Positions 2,587-11,845 of a stretch of 32,000 bases of DNA are shown in pieces. This stretch comes from an uncultured Candidatus Saccharibacteria bacterium. Its GTDB lineage: Bacteria > Patescibacteriota > UBA1384 > XYA2-FULL-43-10 > 1-14-0-10-43-13. The notes under the pieces were generated by a model that worked only from the letters and a program-made list of their open reading frames with translations, was not told the DNA's origin and searched no databases. The stretch covers positions 510,001 to 542,000 of the forward strand of contig CAZIYE010000001.1 of NCBI GenBank assembly GCA_964543385.1, given 5' to 3'. A program made the translations under genes and the position numbers. Positions within the stretch are counted from its first letter, which is position 1. The number at the start of each line of letters is the position of its first letter.

Positions 2587-3365
2587 CAAATAAAGAACAC
2601 CATTAATACTATTGCTGCCAAGAGTATTCTATACCAGAGAAAAATCACAAAATTACTTTTTCTAAGGTAATTTAACAAGAATTTAATAGCAAAGAATCCA
2701 GCGAGTGCTGAGAAGCCTACGCCAAGGAAAAATGGTAGATTGAGATCTGATACTTCGAGTTTGCGTGCTTGTATCAGAAAAGCTCCCACCATTGCTGGTG
2801 TACCAAGAAGGAAGGAAAATCTAGCGGCATCATCACGTTTTAAACCTAATCCACGTGAGGCGATCATGGTGATCCCAGAGCGAGAAACCCCAGGAACTAG
2901 AGCTAAACATTGGGAAATTCCAACAATGAATGATTGTGTAAATGTGATTTTGCCGATCATCTGAGTCGATTTCGCGACTTTGTCAGTTGCCCACAGGAGG
3001 ATACCAAATATTATCAAGTTTATAGCCAAGAGTAGCGGCGAGTGGAAGTATTTCTCAACATAATTTTCTAATATTAGTCCGGCAATGGCAGATGGGATGC
3101 TGGCTAATATAATTTGCCAAAGAAAGTTCCTTGGCAAATCCGCTGATTGACTCTTTTTTATCCCAAAAATATTGAGCCAGTCCTTGTGAAAATAACACAT
3201 AATAGCGATGACAGTGCCTAAATGCAAAGCTGTATCAAAGACCAGCCCATTATACTGCCAATTGAATAGATAGGGGAGCAGAACAAGGTGGGCTGATGAT
3301 GAGATGGGCAGAAACTCTGAAATTCCCTGAGTAATACCCAAAGTTATTGATTGAAGTAATTCCAT
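2586..3365 (-). CDS. uppP: Undecaprenyl-diphosphate phosphatase (BacA/UppP)
   Basis: 259-aa polytopic protein with UppP signatures GITQGISEFLPISSSAHL near the N-terminus and PGVSRSGITM in the second half. Confidence 0.95.
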   Translation of the reverse strand: MELLQSITLGITQGISEFLPISSSAHLVLLPYLFNWQYNGLVFDTALHLGTVIAIMCYFHKDWLNIFGIKKSQSADLPRNFLWQIILASIPSAIAGLILENYVEKYFHSPLLLAINLIIFGILLWATDKVAKSTQMIGKITFTQSFIVGISQCLALVPGVSRSGITMIASRGLGLKRDDAARFSFLLGTPAMVGAFLIQARKLEVSDLNLPFFLGVGFSALAGFFAIKFLLNYLRKSNFVIFLWYRILLAAIVLMVFFI

Positions 3366-3443: not shown

Positions 3444-3998
3444 ATGGACACAATCTTCGACAAAATTAGGCTTTATGATTATCGCATCTATAAATTTTTT
3501 CATGGTGCAATTTACGGCCATCTTTGGATAGGCGATTTTTATTTGTTCTTTGCTAAATATGGAATTGTACTCTTCTTTCTGGCTTATATTTATTTAATTT
3601 TAAAACGTAAAATAGAAGCCTTTATTTGTACCTTTGTCGCTATGGCGATTGCCCTATCAATTGATCTTATCATTGTGCTCGCATGGAAAAGACCGAGACC
3701 GTTTATTAGTCATAGTGATGAGATAATGACACCAATAACGGAGGGCCTTCGTGTTACTAGCATATCTTTTCCTTCCGTCCATACTTATATTGCTTTTGCT
3801 ATTGCCACCAGTGTCTTTCTATATGGCCATAAGAGGTTGGGGACACTTTTATTCTTTTTGGCACTGGCTATAGCGATCAGCCGTGTTGGAGCAGGTCTGC
3901 ATTACCCGTCTGATATTATTGGTGGAGCATTGCTTGGGATAGCTTCTGGAATCTTTGCTTATATTATTGTAAGCAGTTCAGAAAAAAGATGGGAATAA
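3444..3998 (+). CDS. PAP2-family membrane phosphatase (PgpB/BcrC-like, candidate second C55-PP phosphatase)
   Basis: 184 aa, multi-TM, with the tripartite acid phosphatase motif KRPRP, PSVH and SRVGAGLHYPSD. Divergent from uppP across a 78-bp spacer. Confidence 0.9.
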   Translation: MDTIFDKIRLYDYRIYKFFHGAIYGHLWIGDFYLFFAKYGIVLFFLAYIYLILKRKIEAFICTFVAMAIALSIDLIIVLAWKRPRPFISHSDEIMTPITEGLRVTSISFPSVHTYIAFAIATSVFLYGHKRLGTLLFFLALAIAISRVGAGLHYPSDIIGGALLGIASGIFAYIIVSSSEKRWE

Positions 3999-4002
3999 GT
4001 TT

Positions 4003-4037
4003 AGTGTAGAGTCAAGAGTACATAGTTAAGAGTATAA
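4003..4037. repeat. Heptamer array, AGTNNAG type, 5 in-phase units
   Basis: agtgtag agtcaag agtacat agttaag agtataa. AGT recurs at exact 7-nt spacing five times. The array starts 5 nt after the PAP2 stop and ends 18 nt before the four-helix-bundle ATG. Confidence 0.8.
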
Positions 4038-4055
4038 AATGCAGAGAGAGTAGCA

Positions 4056-4436
4056 ATGAATAAATATAAGAATCTAAATGCTTGGAAAGCGGCCAAAAAT
4101 TTGGCAATCCTTGTTTATCAGATTACTGATAGCCATCCAAAAAAAGAAATATATACGCTAACAAGTCAAACAACTAGGGCCGCTGTTTCAATTCCTGCAA
4201 ACATTGCCGAGGGAGATTCCAGAAAATCTGGTAAAGATTTTTGCCACTTTCTAGATATTGCTATTGGTTCACTTTTTGAACTAGAGACTTTGCTTGAAAT
4301 TGCTTTTAGCAGAAATTATTTTGATATGGTACAAAAAGACCACTTGGATGTTGAATTAGAAAACACGGTAAAACTAATTTATGGTCTAAAGCGTAGTATC
4401 AACTCTAAACTCTTAGCCCTAAACTCTCAACTATGA
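4056..4436 (+). CDS. Four-helix-bundle protein (23S rRNA intervening-sequence protein family; Avd-like fold)
   Basis: 126 aa with the family pattern YKNLNAWKAAKNLAILVYQIT, EIYTLTSQTTRAAVSIPANIAEG, SGKDFCHFLDIAIGSLFELETLLEIA. The stop overlaps the xerC start (ATGA). Confidence 0.9.
   Translation: MNKYKNLNAWKAAKNLAILVYQITDSHPKKEIYTLTSQTTRAAVSIPANIAEGDSRKSGKDFCHFLDIAIGSLFELETLLEIAFSRNYFDMVQKDHLDVELENTVKLIYGLKRSINSKLLALNSQL
4398..4432. repeat. Heptamer array, CTNNACT type, 5 in-phase units (inverse orientation to 4003-4037)
   Basis: atcaact ctaaact cttagcc ctaaact ctcaact. It encodes the last residues INSKLLALNSQL of the four-helix-bundle protein and ends one base before the xerC ATG. Confidence 0.8.
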
Positions 4437-5410
4437 AGACTTTGTCTGAATTAAAACGTGAATTCTTGGAGCATTGTGAGCTTGAGAAGGGGCAATCTGC
4501 CTTAACGGTTGATAACTATTCAAGGTATATTGATCGATTCTTGGATTTTCTAGCTGGCGACGATAGGGCTAGTTTGCAATCTTCTGATATTACTCAAGAG
4601 ATCATCCACAAGTATCGCTTACACGTGAATCGCCTAAAGGATATGCAAGGGCAACCACTCAAGAAATCCACAGAAAACTATCACATGCTTGCTGTGCGCG
4701 CATTCTTGCGCTATTTAGCTTGGAGAGGGATTACTTCTCTTTCCCCCGAGAAAGTTCCTGTAGCTAAATCGGAGGATAGGGAAATTACTTTCCTAGAGGG
4801 ACAAGAGGTTAAAACTATTATTGATACTCCAAACACAGCAAAGATAAGTGGATTGAGAGACAGGGCGATATTAGAGTTCCTCTTTTCTACGGGACTTAGG
4901 GTATCTGAGCTTGCAAGATTGAATACCGATGATATTAATTCCCAAAGAGGCGAAATTTCTGTTTTAGGCAAAGGAAAAAAAATCCGTGTTGTATTTTTAT
5001 CTTCTGATGCCCTAAATACGGTAGATCAATATTTGAAAAACAGGGGATTTATCCGACCGGAAGCCGGTACATTTAAGAGAGACCAGCAAGAGCCACTTTT
5101 TTTATCTAAAAGGCAGGAACGTTTAACGGTCCGATCGATAGAAAGGATTGTCAAAAAATATGCAGAAAGAGCTGGCATAACAAAAAAAGTGTCTCCGCAT
5201 ACTCTGAGACACTCATTTGCAACAGATCTTTTGATGGCAGGGGCCGATATTCGTAGCGTTCAATCCATGCTTGGTCACTCGTCTATAACAACTACACAGG
5301 TTTACACTCATGTAACAGATCAACACTTACGAGAAGTGCATCAGAAGTTTCATGGGAAGAGTCTCGAGCAAGAGCAGACGACAGTCGACAGCCAACCGAC
5401 GATCGAGTGA
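4433..5410 (+). CDS. xerC: Tyrosine site-specific recombinase, XerC/XerD type
   Basis: 325 aa with an N-terminal core-binding domain and a C-terminal catalytic domain carrying LFSTGLRVSEL, HTLRHSFATDLL and LGHSSITTTQVYTHV (catalytic Tyr). It has a roughly 15-aa non-canonical C-terminal tail. Confidence 0.92.
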   Translation: MKTLSELKREFLEHCELEKGQSALTVDNYSRYIDRFLDFLAGDDRASLQSSDITQEIIHKYRLHVNRLKDMQGQPLKKSTENYHMLAVRAFLRYLAWRGITSLSPEKVPVAKSEDREITFLEGQEVKTIIDTPNTAKISGLRDRAILEFLFSTGLRVSELARLNTDDINSQRGEISVLGKGKKIRVVFLSSDALNTVDQYLKNRGFIRPEAGTFKRDQQEPLFLSKRQERLTVRSIERIVKKYAERAGITKKVSPHTLRHSFATDLLMAGADIRSVQSMLGHSSITTTQVYTHVTDQHLREVHQKFHGKSLEQEQTTVDSQPTIE

Positions 5411-7094: not shown

Positions 7095-8033
7095 TTAATT
7101 TCTCCTTATCTTCTCTAATACCTTAAATAACTGATATGAAGTTGGCTTTAATATCCGATCATAACAGCCATGAATATCCACTTGGTATCCGCCAAACTGT
7201 TTCTTGAAGCTTGTGATCCCCGACCATGGATGTTTCGGGTCGTCGTTGGGTGCAATGCCATAAAAATCAAAGGCATCGCAGCCTTTTTCTTTAGCGTCTT
7301 GAATCATTTGCCAAACTAGTAAGTTTGGCGCTTTTAAATTGCGGTATTCATTACTTGATGCGCCGAACATATATATAGCCTTCTTGCCCGAATAGACAAC
7401 AATGCCCGATGACAAAACTTTGCATTGGCCATCAGACTTGAGCGTGGAGCTATAAATCCGAGCATAGCCGCCTTTGCTTAAAATATCAAGTAAACCTTGG
7501 AAGTAACCTATGCTTCTATATGTAATGCCATGCCTCTTTCCGGTAATAGAATATAGCGAATAAAAGTCATGCAACATCTCGTCGCTATATTCAGTTGATG
7601 TAATCTCGACGCCGCTTTTTGCAGCGAGTCGTATATTATATCTACATCTCACAGACATCTCGGCTAATAATTCATCCTGATCCTTTGTTATATCTAGGAT
7701 CCAAGTATTTTCTGGTTGCATGTGCTCAAAAGATTTGGTTAAGCTAGAGTCTTGAATATTAGTGGTTAGGGATACAGAAATAGGAATATCAAACTCTACT
7801 CTGTAAAAAATAGATTTATTTTCTTTTGCGATCTCTTGGATTTTATTCCAGAAATTGCTCTTGACTCTTGACTCTTGACTCTTGACTACCATAGGCGAAT
7901 AAAGCATCGAATAACCAAGAGGAAGATTTTTTTGCAAAACCAAAACACCATCTACCCAATAACTTTTCTGGTAGCCTGTTTTGAGTTTAAATTTCTCCCA
8001 TTCCTCTGATTGAAAGATTGATTGCATAAACAA
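7095..8033 (-). CDS. FemAB-family peptidoglycan bridge aminoacyltransferase (lipid II peptidyltransferase-like)
   Basis: 312 aa with a family-typical N-terminus (FMQSIFQSEEWEKFKLKTGY) and a C-terminal GNAT-like half (AIYMFGASSNEYRNLKAPNLLVWQMIQDAKEKGCDAFDFYGI, SGITSFKKQFGG). Its stop lies 7 nt before the Mur ligase start. Confidence 0.85.
   Translation of the reverse strand: MFMQSIFQSEEWEKFKLKTGYQKSYWVDGVLVLQKNLPLGYSMLYSPMVVKSQESRVKSNFWNKIQEIAKENKSIFYRVEFDIPISVSLTTNIQDSSLTKSFEHMQPENTWILDITKDQDELLAEMSVRCRYNIRLAAKSGVEITSTEYSDEMLHDFYSLYSITGKRHGITYRSIGYFQGLLDILSKGGYARIYSSTLKSDGQCKVLSSGIVVYSGKKAIYMFGASSNEYRNLKAPNLLVWQMIQDAKEKGCDAFDFYGIAPNDDPKHPWSGITSFKKQFGGYQVDIHGCYDRILKPTSYQLFKVLEKIRRN
7860..7887. 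repeat. Perfect tandem heptamer (CTTGACT)x4 inside the FemAB-like CDS
   Basis: cttgact cttgact cttgact cttgact, read directly. On the coding (minus) strand it gives VVKSQESRVKSN. Confidence 0.95.
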
Positions 8034-8140: not shown

Positions 8141-9364
8141 ATGATGAAAAACAAAGCAATCAAAATATTGGCTATAGAGACTAGCTGTGACGAGACGGCA
8201 GCAGCGGTGATAAGAGAGAATGAGGGGGAGCCAGTTATTTTATCGAACGTGGTCTCTTCGCAGATTGATCTTCATGCTAAAACTGGTGGTGTTGTCCCAG
8301 AGGTTGCAAGCCGAGCCCATATGGAAGCGATAATGCCTGTGATTGCCGAAGCATTCATTTCTGCTAATTCTTCCGAAAAGAGTTCCAACGGTGCTATTCC
8401 AACCCTCAACTCTAAGCTCTCAACTCTAAACTATAAGGAAACAATCGGATTGTTTCCTGATATTACTCACATAGCTGTTACTTCTGGTCCCGGTCTTATT
8501 GGTTCTCTCTTGGTCGGATTTAATGCTGCAAAGTCTCTATCCTATTCAAGAGACTTGCCAGTTATACCTGTCAACCATATAGAGGGTCATATATACTCAG
8601 TTTTTGGTCAATTACAAAATGGTCAAGCATTCCCAATATTGGCTCTTACTGTTTCTGGTGGCCATACGTCTCTTAATTTGATGAAGGGTCATGGTGAATA
8701 TGAATCTATAGGAGATACTTTAGATGATGCGGTCGGCGAAGCTTACGATAAAGTAGGAAAGCTTTTAGGACTAGGCTATCCAGGAGGGCCGGCGATTTCT
8801 AAACTCGCTCAAGAGTTTAGAAACAGATTTAGCAATTTAGCAATTGGTTCATTTAATAATTTAATGAATAAATATCCAAATGGACAAATAGCCAAATCAC
8901 GATCTTTGATCGTGTTTCCTCGTCCAATCATAAATGATGGGACATTTAATTTCTCCTTTTCGGGTTTAAAGACAGCAGTTCTATCGGAAGTAAAGAAAAA
9001 TATTACAAAATATAATGTTGAAAATTCAGAAAACATTCCCGAAAATGTCAAAGAAGAAATAGCTTTTGCTTTTGAAGAAGCAGTTGCTGACGTGCTAGCA
9101 GCAAAAACAGTCAAGGCAGTCCTTAAATTTAACCCAAAGACAGTGATTTTTGCTGGCGGTGTCTCCGCGAATATTTATTTGCAAGATAAAATCAGAAATG
9201 CGGTTGTGGGTTGTCAGCTATCTATTGATTTTCTAACCCCGCCTAGAGCATTAACTGGGGATAACGCTGCGATGATTGGTATTGCCGCCTTTTATCATAT
9301 TAAAAGAGGTAACATCAAAAGTTGGGATAAAATTACGGTTGATTCAAATTGGGAGTTGAATTAA
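8141..9364 (+). CDS. tsaD: tRNA N6-adenosine threonylcarbamoyltransferase TsaD, with two lineage-specific insertions
   Basis: 407 aa with ILAIETSCDETAAAV, GGVVPEVASRAH, AVTSGPGLIGSLLVG, VNHIEGH, VSGGHT, DDAVGEAYDKVGKLLGLGYPGGP, FSFSGLKTAV and GGVSAN. Confidence 0.95.
   Translation: MMKNKAIKILAIETSCDETAAAVIRENEGEPVILSNVVSSQIDLHAKTGGVVPEVASRAHMEAIMPVIAEAFISANSSEKSSNGAIPTLNSKLSTLNYKETIGLFPDITHIAVTSGPGLIGSLLVGFNAAKSLSYSRDLPVIPVNHIEGHIYSVFGQLQNGQAFPILALTVSGGHTSLNLMKGHGEYESIGDTLDDAVGEAYDKVGKLLGLGYPGGPAISKLAQEFRNRFSNLAIGSFNNLMNKYPNGQIAKSRSLIVFPRPIINDGTFNFSFSGLKTAVLSEVKKNITKYNVENSENIPENVKEEIAFAFEEAVADVLAAKTVKAVLKFNPKTVIFAGGVSANIYLQDKIRNAVVGCQLSIDFLTPPRALTGDNAAMIGIAAFYHIKRGNIKSWDKITVDSNWELN
8405..8432. 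repeat. Heptamer array, CTNARCT type, 4 in-phase units inside tsaD
   Basis: ctcaact ctaagct ctcaact ctaaact. These are the same unit types as at 4398-4432. It encodes LNSKLSTLN within a TsaD insertion. Confidence 0.8.
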
Positions 9365-10151: not shown

Positions 10152-10889
10152 TTAGAGCTGGGTTGTTGTGGGTGGGATAGGAGATTGGACGGGAGCAGCT
10201 GGATTTACCGGAGGATTTGTTGTGGTTATAGATGGTACAGGCTGGCTATCGATTTGTGCCGGGGGTGTGACCACTGTTGGTTCTACACCGGTAGTAGGAG
10301 CTAAGGGATTAGTATCAATAACAGGGGCAGGAGACATAGCAGGAGTTGGGGAAAACGATGGTGCTATTGTCTGCTCAGCGATTGGGGTTTCTGGTGCGAA
10401 GAGATCGTCAAGACCATCATCGACTATTGGACTTGTCTTAATTTCTGGTACAGATAAATCCTCCTGTGGCGGTTGGATCGTTGTTACTATTGGAGTCTCT
10501 GGCATAGTAGCATTATTTGTACTTGTTTCTATGTCGGCATGGGGCGTCAAGAGTGTAGTATCGTTGGTCGATGTATCTGAAATAGTTGTGTTTGATGTGT
10601 CGGTAGTAACACTTGATGAGCTTGTGGACACATCCAGTGGATTGCTATCTTTATTAACTATTGGATCATCATTTTTAACATCATCCTCAACATCTTCGGG
10701 GATAATCATTTTATGGTCTATGCCAGTAAGCTTCTCGAGATGGTGCACCCCTACAATTATTGCAGCCGGTTTACCATTCTTTGTTATTACATAAAGATCC
10801 TCACTGTCGGTGACAGCATCTATTATTTTATTTAAAGAATCTCTTACTTCCGTAATAGGCAATATTTTTTCGACATCCACGTCCAACAT
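10152..10889 (-). CDS. Phd/YefM-type antitoxin-fold domain protein with a roughly 180-aa Pro/Thr/Ser-rich disordered tail
   Basis: The N-terminal 60 aa (ILPITEVRDSLNKIIDAVTDSEDLYVITKNGKPAAIIVGVHHLEKL) match the Phd/YefM pattern. The rest is low-complexity P/T/S/D-rich sequence. A strong GGAGG lies 5 nt upstream of the ATG. Confidence 0.75.
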   Translation of the reverse strand: MLDVDVEKILPITEVRDSLNKIIDAVTDSEDLYVITKNGKPAAIIVGVHHLEKLTGIDHKMIIPEDVEDDVKNDDPIVNKDSNPLDVSTSSSSVTTDTSNTTISDTSTNDTTLLTPHADIETSTNNATMPETPIVTTIQPPQEDLSVPEIKTSPIVDDGLDDLFAPETPIAEQTIAPSFSPTPAMSPAPVIDTNPLAPTTGVEPTVVTPPAQIDSQPVPSITTTNPPVNPAAPVQSPIPPTTTQL

Positions 10890-11006
10890 AGAACCTCCAA
10901 GAGTTATTTATTTATCAATTGATCATTAAACCATTTTTCATTAATTTGTCATTTATAATTTTACATTTATTTTAAAAATTAATAAATCCCTGATACAATT
11001 AAAGAA

Positions 11007-11366
11007 ATGAGCAGAGAACAAGAATTTGAAGATCGTCTGATAAATTTTTCACAAAGTACTCTCCTTTTATGTAGAAAAATACCCGAGACAACCATAACCA
11101 GGCCAATCATTACTCAATTGGTGAGATCAGCAACAAGTATAGGTGCAAATTATTGTGAAGCTAATAATGCCAGCTCCAAAAGAGACTTTAAGAATAAGAT
11201 TTTTATTTGCAAGAAAGAATCACAAGAAACTAAATATTGGCTCAAACTAGTATTATCATCTTCAAGTGAAGGAAAGGATGAAATAAATAAACTTATTCAA
11301 GAATGTCATGAGTTTTGCCTGATATTTCAAAAAATTGTCGCCACTATAGAAAATAATGGTAAATGA
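11007..11366 (+). CDS. Four-helix-bundle protein (23S rRNA intervening-sequence protein family), second divergent copy
   Basis: 119 aa with FEDRLINFSQSTLLLCRKIP, ITQLVRSATSIGANYCEANNASSKRDFKNKIFICKKESQETKYWLKLV. Confidence 0.88.
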   Translation: MSREQEFEDRLINFSQSTLLLCRKIPETTITRPIITQLVRSATSIGANYCEANNASSKRDFKNKIFICKKESQETKYWLKLVLSSSSEGKDEINKLIQECHEFCLIFQKIVATIENNGK

Positions 11367-11383
11367 ATAAAATATTTAAAATT

Positions 11384-11418
11384 AATGGGTAATGAAAAAT
11401 GAAAAATCAAAAATCAAA
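11384..11418. repeat. Heptamer array AATSAAA-type, 5 units, overlapping the gtrA-like start
   Basis: aatgggt aatgaaa aatgaaa aatcaaa aatcaaa. The first three units each contain an ATG (11385, 11392, 11399). Confidence 0.8.
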
Positions 11419-11845
11419 AGAGTCTCTGCTTCAATTTATAAAATTCGGCATTGTCGGAGTTGCGAATACTTGTGTTGACTGGATAGTTTTCTACATATTA
11501 GTTAACACAATCTTGGGTGAGCAAAGAACGATTGCCAAGGCTATTGCATTTATAGTTGCGGTATTAAATTCCTATATATTTAATACGATTTGGACCTTCA
11601 AAAAGGAGTATGCAAGTGCTGCTGGCAAATCCGGAGACTCTTCAGCTAAATCGGCGATTTTTGGCAAATTTATAATAGTTAGTTTGATTGGGTGGGCTGT
11701 AAATGTCTTTGTATTTAGTCAAGCTGCAAATCGTGTAGATATGGCTCTTTTTAATAAACCGGACTTATTACCTTTAATCTTTGCTTCCGGCGCTGCAATA
11801 CTTTGGAACTTCTTCGCGAATAAACTCTGGACTTACAAGAAGTAA
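11399..11845 (+). CDS. GtrA-family small membrane protein (polyprenol-phosphate-sugar flippase-like)
   Basis: 148 aa, 4 predicted TM helices, with the GtrA-like N-terminus FIKFGIVGVANTCVDWIVFYIL and C-terminus LWNFFANKLWTYKK. Confidence 0.88.
   Translation: MKNQKSKESLLQFIKFGIVGVANTCVDWIVFYILVNTILGEQRTIAKAIAFIVAVLNSYIFNTIWTFKKEYASAAGKSGDSSAKSAIFGKFIIVSLIGWAVNVFVFSQAANRVDMALFNKPDLLPLIFASGAAILWNFFANKLWTYKK

Follow-up and report, generated by a model that had tools for sequence, protein, structure and literature searches.

The closest described counterparts of the locus analyzed here are the intervening sequences (IVSs) of 23S rRNA and the heptameric tandem repeats of prokaryotic intergenic DNA. 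The 23S IVS of Coxiella is closed by a 28-bp terminal stem, in which RNase III cuts have been mapped, carries an S23p ORF in its loop and has three to four tandem GACAGAT heptamers of strain-variable copy number ahead of the ATG, which were reported as a local feature (PMC4990558). PF05635 ORFs have also been found inside rRNA insertions of CPR bacteria (PMC11270868). The heptameric repeats of Xanthomonas and Nostoc form 70-75 convergent inverted pairs and were given no link to the PF05635 family, although a supplementary table of the same study has Xcc repeat #15 (GGGAATC x4) overlapping the start of XCC0516 (PMC4692102), which is the crystallized homologue (PDB 2GSC) of the protein considered below. 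Such repeats have been attributed to polymerase slippage (PMC4692102; 10.1101/309039); a survey of 7,006 genomes, in which heptamers were the most abundant intergenic tandem repeat, gave no functional clue (10.1101/309039), and a study of Nostoc postulates an unidentified protein partner for them (10.1101/2022.06.06.494920).

A stated link between the PF05635 family and heptamer repeats was sought in full-text literature, with subscription-only literature outside the search, and the Coxiella paper alone was recovered. The initial annotation of the present locus had known of no description of heptamer-array termini for this family. Because heptameric repeats at the IVS stem are on record for Coxiella (PMC4990558), the feature is not wholly undescribed, and the claim holds in a narrower form: a general statement of a family-wide heptamer-arm rule was not found in the searched full text.

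Gene and arms in the window

The window, a stretch of 32,000 nucleotides from a Patescibacteria (Berkelbacteria-like) genome, contains an IVS-like cassette outside rRNA, in which a long hairpin, with inverted 7-nt arrays as its arms, encloses a functional S23p / four-helix-bundle gene and stands between two protein-coding genes. The features of the region are as follows (coordinates in the window, strand, description).

3444..3998, + strand, PAP2-family phosphatase gene, left neighbor (PF01569, E=4e-19)
3999..4432, + strand, inserted cassette, 434 nt, equal to the entire PAP2-xerC intergenic space (the same junction in relative L211 is TAG-G-ATG, 1 nt)
4003..4037, + strand, 5' arm, five AGTNNAG heptamers, G-rich (23 of 25 specified positions matched)
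4038..4055, + strand, 18-nt spacer, purine-rich, GAGAGAG ahead of the ATG (direct reading)
4056..4436, + strand, four-helix-bundle / 23S rRNA-IVS protein gene, 126 aa (PF05635, E=4e-33; TIGR02436, E=2e-32)
4398..4432, - strand, 3' arm, five heptamers that read CTNNACT on the + strand and AGTNNAG on the - strand (22 of 25 positions)
4433..5410, + strand, xerC/xerD-like tyrosine recombinase gene, right neighbor (PF00589, E=3e-48)

By direct reading, the PAP2 stop codon TAA occupies 3996-3998, and the first unit of the 5' arm (agtgtag agtcaag agtacat agttaag agtataa) starts 5 nt past it. The 3' arm (atcaact ctaaact cttagcc ctaaact ctcaact on the + strand) is translated as the protein tail INSKLLALNSQL and ends 1 nt ahead of the xerC ATG (4433-4435), which overlaps the stop of the cassette ORF as ATGA (4433-4436). 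The 3' arm is thus now coding and supplies the start context of xerC. These positions and units, the translation of the 3' array and the ATGA overlap are as first described, and the hand estimate of arm complementarity, 22 of 35 positions, was reproduced by the in-register count (63%).

The four-helix-bundle (23S-IVS) identity first assigned to the gene was upheld, as the product matches PF05635 with 114 bits (cut-off 33.8) over profile positions 1-105 of 106, and TIGR02436 with 111 bits (cut-off 24). Among proteins of solved structure, the pentameric XCC0516 of Xanthomonas campestris (PDB 2GSC, E=9e-20) is the closest homologue, and PDB 2RLD is another; the fold and the pentameric state of the window protein are predicted by sequence homology to these. 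Many homologues match PF22296 bAvd too.

Arrays of this kind are much more frequent in the window than chance would give. The two-unit pattern with at most one mismatch has 16 matches against 1.8 expected, and arrays of five units with a score of 19/25 or higher stand at four places, where a Markov shuffle yields about 0.015, which disposes of the doubt, raised at the outset, that shuffled sequence might hold them as often. Among periods 4-11, period 7 is enriched (five overlapping segments, three places in the window). Period 12 also gives six segments in the window. In the minimum-free-energy fold of 3995-4445 the two ends pair with each other, as a hairpin closed by the arms would have it, but the fold z-score is only -1.95. 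The spacer at 4038-4055, being only 18 nt long, leaves no room for a promoter, and a promoter and terminator scan of the cassette region gave matches at chance level only. Rfam matched no RNA family in the 32-kb window, and PADLOC returned zero matches.

Further arrays, and a second four-helix-bundle gene, are present in the window:

7853..7887, - strand, solo array, AGTCAAG x4 perfect, within a FemAB-like gene, coding for residues 50-60
8398..8432, - strand, solo array of the AGTNNAG type within tsaD, coding for TLNSKLSTLN
10932..10980, + strand, probable 5' arm of a second cassette, AT-rich, period 7/14 (TRF: period 14)
11007..11366, + strand, second four-helix-bundle gene, 119 aa (PF05635, E=8e-15; TIGR02436, E=4e-21)
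11371..11419, + strand, probable 3' arm of the second cassette, AATGAAA/AATCAAA x4, overlapping the start of a GtrA-like gene

The array in tsaD belongs to an insertion, about 26 aa long, that solved TsaD structures lack; query residues 70-104 correspond there to about nine residues. In relatives L211 and L212, the orthologous position of the FemAB-like gene is likewise taken by arrays, made of other units, and arrays were found within xerC of relatives as well. The second cassette has a 40-nt inverted repeat that is 78% complementary, and both four-helix-bundle genes of the window are bracketed by inverted periodic arms. Since AGTNNAG arrays also lie inside tsaD and the FemAB-like gene, they are a repeat class of this genome and not private termini; as bounds of the cassette, which the initial annotation had made them, both arms are present, yet the array type is not confined to that role.

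The same junction in related species

The PAP2-xerC junction was compared in seven related species, in which the Xer protein is 63-75% identical; the named Xer relatives belong to Berkelbacteria and 'Patescibacteria group' MAGs. PAP2 adjoins xerC in all eight related loci (8/8), and the junctions are in the following states.

L204, gene and arms, units RGTWTAG / CTAAACY, 26/35 pairs
L208, gene and arms, 22/28 pairs
L210, gene and arms, unit AGTNAGT, 30/49 pairs
L211, empty, neither gene nor arrays, TAG-G-ATG, 1 nt
L212, without the gene, 38 nt, one small AAGTWWA array
L213, without the gene, a 92-nt array-only hairpin, -48 kcal/mol, z=-7.4
L214, without the gene, a 158-nt array hairpin, z=-5.3

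The search for sites lacking the insert, proposed at the outset, thus found four relatives without the four-helix-bundle gene, with PAP2-xerC gaps of 1, 38, 92 or 158 nt, and the three relatives that carry it all keep periodic arms, the units of which are partly different from those of the window. Occupied, array-only and empty states at one junction mark the module as a unit of insertion or deletion that fills the whole intergenic space.

The cassette is old and has been retained under purifying selection. Against its orthologues the four-helix-bundle gene has a dN of 0.28-0.39 with saturated dS, which indicates purifying selection, and its dN against L204 and L208 (0.28-0.34) is on a par with the divergence of Xer and PAP2; this parity, with synonymous sites saturated, speaks for long vertical retention. 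In L210, the protein has diverged twice as far as the Xer of that locus, which suggests that the gene was replaced there. The C-terminal tails of orthologues read TLNSKPSTLNQ and ILNPKLHTLNSKLQ. Because synonymous saturation would have randomized neutral sequence, whereas the arms are still arrays, the arms are maintained either by selection or by ongoing concerted evolution.

Arms in the protein family at large

Eighty loci encoding relatives of the window protein (38-59% identical) were sampled from metagenomes. Of the period-7 arrays in these loci, 63 lie at most 150 nt from a gene end (29 kb in all), against 50 in the other 360 kb, that is, an array density about 16-fold higher beside the gene, whereas periods 5, 6, 8, 9 and 10 gave 1, 0, 6, 0 and 0 arrays near the gene. 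In a given locus the downstream array is the reverse complement of the upstream one, and the unit varies among loci (GGGGACT/AGTCCCC, GGTTSAT/ATSAACC, GATGTCA/TGACATC, AGTGATA/TATCACT); the protein core is conserved while the units vary widely.

A flank test, which is independent of the choice of period, was made by comparing the pair of flanks of each gene with mismatched pairs drawn from other loci. The 99th percentile was exceeded by 49 of 72 metagenomic loci (the 95th by 61 of 72) and, in an independent sample of viral contigs, by 32 of 46 loci, whereas only 2 of 266 other ORFs (0.8%) of the metagenomic loci reached it. Own-flank complementarity therefore characterizes 68-70% of the loci against 0.8% of neighboring ORFs, and the association of arrays with PF05635 genes, which the initial annotation had put forward for checking, is borne out. 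In the same test the window cassette scores 22, degenerate and just over the 95th percentile of mismatched pairs, and the second cassette scores 35, over the 99th. In short, the design of a gene between heptamer arms covers most of the sampled members of the family, and the arms are complementary within a locus while their unit differs among loci.

The arms are typically about 31 nt long, with four to five units, and the spacer that separates arm and start codon is in most cases 10-40 nt, which leaves too little space for a promoter. Distances between complementary arrays fall into two groups (0-150 nt and 300-500 nt), a bimodality that resembles the split of rRNA IVSs into ORF-less and ORF-bearing forms. 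No other recurrent ORF family was obvious between array pairs of cassette size. In L204, a small GxxExxY/PDDEXK_3 (TIGR04256) gene adjoins the FemAB-like gene and has ATGACAG-type inverted flanks, so that an extension of the design to this family is conceivable; the sample covered three further examples of the family.

Among the mismatches of the arms, G:U and U:G together amount to 57 against 64 for A:C and C:A. With wobble pairs not in excess, there is no sign of selection for an RNA helix, whichever strand is considered. The 5' arm has more G than C in 45 of 47 loci. A 'polarity' by which the G-rich 5' arm would be a sign of gene orientation was considered and dropped, because a convergent G-rich pair, as in Xanthomonas, looks alike from either strand; a G-rich 5' arm follows from the inverted pair as such and is uninformative on gene orientation.

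Public genomes provide two further examples. On plasmid pNPUN02 of N. punctiforme, the gene for WP_012413174.1 lies between TCAGGAG x5 and CTGACTC-type arrays, and the 3' arm codes for the protein tail, a layout as in the window cassette. A copy in Nostoc PCC 7120 has the 3' arm alone (CTGCCCT x5), with a transposase adjacent.

On these results, the element of the window is very probably an IVS-like cassette, discrete and with arms made of heptamer arrays.

Arrays away from the gene and other origins of the arms

Heptamer arrays are far from restricted to the gene. In reference genomes, exact (AGTNNAG)x4 occurs at no fewer than 120 loci, against about one expected, in many phyla; many of the loci among the matches listed are short-loop inverted pairs, and arrays can run much longer than five units. 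A search by phmmer and a 120-sequence HMM gave one weak four-helix-bundle match among the 120 array-centered loci listed. As the arrays far outnumber the genes, the notion that they are termini of the four-helix-bundle gene exclusively was rejected.

This abundance bears on the possibility that the arms are the host's own, a bare ORF with its ribosome-binding site having inserted preferentially into the loops of pre-existing, genome-wide heptamer hairpins. Reference genomes are rich in short-loop array hairpins without the gene, the window has AGTNNAG arrays in tsaD and the FemAB-like gene, and in five contigs (L127, L129, L135, L158 and L201) solo arrays or hairpins share their unit with the arms of the gene; in the rRNA IVS, however, the stem is part of what is inserted, as was established in Coxiella (PMC4990558). 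The array-only hairpins at the orthologous junction of L213 and L214 would be targets of the expected kind, although loss of the ORF from a cassette would yield the same hairpin-only sites, and in L211 both the arrays and the gene are absent. Taken together, the two spacers between arms and gene have about the length of the loops of ORF-less hairpins, but the protein is not known to act in integration, and no recombinase was found with it in the 80 other loci. We consider host-derived arms rather unlikely.

Another possibility is that the arrays are binding or working sites of the pentameric protein, in autoregulation or in a genome-wide role, so that gene and arrays travel together. Farther than 300 nt from the gene on either side, 41 period-7 arrays were found in 247 kb of viral gene-bearing contigs (22 of 58 loci) and 44 in 315 kb of metagenomic ones (22 of 80 loci), whereas 80 integrase-selected viral control loci (459 kb), which have no four-helix-bundle gene, gave no period-7 array. 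The two sets differ in median GC content (0.54 against 0.45) and surely in host taxa; this is therefore a co-distribution, which may reflect shared taxonomy, and not proof of dependence. Of 72,556 plasmid records, 22 hold homologues, and 21 of these come from cyanobacterial genera. Cyanobacteria are the classic carriers of heptamer STRRs. The typical four to five units per arm would suit the five chains of the solved homologue 2GSC, but arrays can far exceed five units; the protein partner postulated for the heptamer repeats of Nostoc (10.1101/2022.06.06.494920) would likewise suit such a role, although a conserved protein core is hard to reconcile with units that vary so widely among loci. 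On this evidence, a role of the arrays as sites of the protein seems improbable.

That the arrays are ordinary slippage-prone simple repeats, which stand on both sides of the gene by accident, is very improbable and strongly disfavored. Heptamers are indeed the most over-represented intergenic tandem repeat of prokaryotes, ascribed to slippage (PMC4692102; 10.1101/309039), and tsaD, the FemAB-like gene and the xerC of relatives have arrays too; yet accident does not account for the complementarity of own flanks at 68-70% of loci but only 0.8% of neighboring ORFs, for the roughly 16-fold array density beside the gene, or for the retention of arms in three orthologous loci with synonymous sites at saturation.

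The least probable reading, that the arms are recombination sites of the adjacent tyrosine recombinase (integron-like or Xer-mobilized), draws on the overlap of the gene's stop with the recombinase start and on some homologues' database names, which read 'integron integrase', but is disfavored because the recombinase is syntenic with or without the cassette, no recombinase homologue was found in the 80 other gene-bearing loci (389 kb), and the arms are unlike the single-sided, non-repetitive attC layout. The adjacency to xerC, which the initial annotation had stressed, is real in that the start overlaps the ORF stop, and it is incidental, since a conserved, housekeeping-type Xer is present at occupied and empty junctions alike and none was found in the other 80 loci.

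Maintenance of the cassette

The preferred reading of 3999-4432 joins the IVS-type cassette to a mechanism of RNase III cutting and DNA-level homogenization, and with both parts taken together it is on balance probable, the mechanism by itself being tentative and somewhat doubtful. The cassette would have no promoter of its own and would share a transcript with PAP2 and xerC; with such short spacers, and with PAP2, the gene and xerC adjoining one another on a single strand, co-transcription of arms and gene is probable. Paired arms would close the ORF into a stem-loop, and in the better-preserved copies they could form a duplex of 25-50 bp, by analogy the kind cut by RNase III in rRNA IVSs. 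At the DNA level, slippage and template switching between the arms may keep both the arrays and their complementarity. As there is no wobble excess and the 3' arm is translated, we attribute the upkeep of the arms to such DNA-level processes and not to selection on RNA base pairs.

The window copy looks fixed and partly decayed. Its 22/35 pairs, a flank score barely over the 95th percentile and a z-score of -1.95 make a weak duplex, which stands against the preferred reading. Translation of the 3' arm is a further point against it, since ribosomes would melt any stem. Of the four window arrays of the AGTNNAG type, two lie inside other genes, also at odds with the preferred reading. Mobility of the cassette we infer from presence and absence alone; no two cassettes in different contexts share nucleotide similarity ending at the arms, and recent mobility is thus unsupported.

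In a wider and rather unlikely extension, the S23p/four-helix-bundle proteins and the heptamer arrays would be two halves of one widespread system, in which the pentamer recognizes the nucleic acid of the arrays or has a part in generating and spreading it. If so, ORF-less array hairpins would be non-coding relatives of the cassettes, the rRNA 'IVS' would be the best-known landing site, and the excess of 7-nt repeats in prokaryotic intergenic DNA would be the footprint of this system and not of generic polymerase slippage.

ORF-bearing rRNA IVSs have been known since the 1990s and, to our knowledge, neither their origin nor the function of their protein has been explained; likewise, we know of no characterization of the very large PF05635/Avd-like family outside DGRs. 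The arm rule would join these separate puzzles and offer each field a concrete partner, with Nostoc and Xanthomonas campestris as tractable organisms and XCC0516 (2GSC) already solved. For annotation, it accounts for odd C-terminal tails (LNSKL...), for in-frame low-complexity inserts in essential genes and for variable intergenic lengths in Patescibacteria. The family-wide link to heptamer arrays is in our view the valuable result, as it makes an old question testable.

Comparison with known systems

The four-helix-bundle protein is related to the DGR Avd family (through the PF22296 bAvd matches), but the window gene stands alone. In the 10 kb to each side of the cassette, none of the called genes gave a reverse transcriptase domain, and membership in a DGR was rejected accordingly. 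An integron cassette was rejected as well, there being two periodic arms instead of one attC, and an Xer that is syntenic at empty sites too.

With MITEs and REP-BIMEs the cassette shares the form of a short module with inverted repeats, placed where genes meet, as well as ORF-less forms that abound in the genome and presence or absence among relatives. It differs in having no target-site duplication, its flanks being merely a stop codon and a start codon, and no cognate transposase or RAYT; moreover, its arms are internally periodic and locus-specific in sequence, and no recently copied pairs were found. A MITE or terminal-inverted-repeat transposon was rejected on the lack of a duplication and of copies with similarity ending at the arms. 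Of the first description of the insert as an IVS- or MITE-like module, the former half is therefore supported, by the junction states and the flank test, and the latter falls away.

The heptameric SSRs (the STRRs of cyanobacteria, GGGAATC of Xanthomonas and TAACTGA of Beggiatoaceae) are likewise tandem 7-nt units, mostly intergenic, and often convergent G-rich pairs able to form stem-loops (PMC4692102). The STRR1 unit CCCCAGT is used by the metagenomic locus L127, and the four AGTNNAG arrays of the window, with four to five units each, show the recurrence of at least three tandem 7-nt units that defines this class. Reports on heptameric SSRs, however, treat the repeats as stand-alone, whereas here the arrays bracket one gene family.

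The nearest likeness is to the 23S rRNA IVSs, such as those of Coxiella burnetii and Leptospira, from which the window cassette differs in lying between PAP2 and xerC, outside the 23S rRNA helix (25 or 45), in its degenerate arms and translated 3' arm, and in an ORF under purifying selection where that of Coxiella is reported to be decaying. In both, presence among relatives is patchy, an S23p/PF05635 ORF occupies the loop and terminal inverted repeats close the stem, and the GACAGAT heptamers of Coxiella stand just 5' of the ATG (PMC4990558). Complementary termini around an ORF in the loop, which are the mark of the IVS, were found in the window at 22/35 positions and are better preserved in its orthologues, at 26/35, 22/28 and 30/49.

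Heptamer arrays and other repeats within genes

The FemAB-like gene carries a heptamer array at an equivalent position (codons ~50-60) in three species, namely that of the window and those represented by L211 and L212, two related loci in which the PAP2-xerC junction is without the four-helix-bundle gene. The array units are unlike among the three, and the length of the site is unchanged in the window and L211, with a 5-residue insertion in L212. What is kept in this gene seems to be the "array-ness", while the underlying sequence turns over. Arrays are also found in the N-terminal domain of xerC in L204 and L208, two related species' loci that have the four-helix-bundle gene with its arms, and because of them the Xer proteins of both loci are ~25 aa longer than that of the window. 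The lengths of Xer homologues in the window's clade vary between 268 and 418 aa.

Heptamer arrays within the FemAB-like gene and xerC
Window, 7853-7887: FemAB-like gene, unit AGTCAAG
L211, 6822-6852: FemAB-like gene, unit AGTNNNA
L212, 6327-6374: FemAB-like gene, unit GAATCTG
L204, 4593-4625: xerC, CCCTAAA-type
L208, 2536-2601: xerC, CCCTAAA-type

A second insertion in tsaD of the window (8827-8897, residues ~229-253) is built from tandem repeats of period 8/16 (ATTTAGCA, AAATAGCC), and has no counterpart in solved TsaD structures.

Small genes and neighboring features

In L204, a GxxExxY / PDDEXK_3 gene (TIGR04256; 7928-8308) with an inverted repeat of the ATGACAG type on its flanks separates the FemAB-like gene from tsaD; the same site in the window is without this gene. 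This may be a second small-gene family packaged like the four-helix-bundle genes, as judged from very few examples. A small GIY-YIG gene, found 3' of xerC in L210 (4044-4331; a related locus with the four-helix-bundle gene) and L211 (4089-4382) and absent there from the window, is another small gene of this present/absent kind at the xerC locus.

Between the PAP2 stop and the 5' arm, L204 (3933-3946, GCGGCTACGTCGCC) and L208 (1922-1935, GCGACGAAGTCGCC) have a short GC-rich segment immediately adjoining the stop, which is absent from the window; GCGAC in the L208 segment pairs with GTCGC.

The minus strand of the window (10152-10889) encodes a PhdYeFM antitoxin-domain protein with a T-, S- and P-rich low-complexity tail of ~170 aa; no toxin partner is evident for it. 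Genes resembling those of type IV secretion (TraG P-loop, TraC-like and PrgI-like; L001 1-1800, upstream of the window) lie ~8 kb from the cassette on its upstream side, in a small-genome bacterium.

Arrays at other loci

In the metagenomic locus L127, a pair of STRR1-type arrays (GGGGACT ... CCCCAGT; 3159-3203 and 4858-4904) is separated by 1.65 kb. The four-helix-bundle cassette, whose own arms have the unit of the outer arrays, falls inside this pair, in what looks like a nested arrangement. The reference-genome locus L120 contains a long GGTTTAG/AGTTTAG run, which could be contamination, the end of a linear replicon or merely another heptamer array; its repeat is the same as the plant-type telomere repeat, TTTAGGG.
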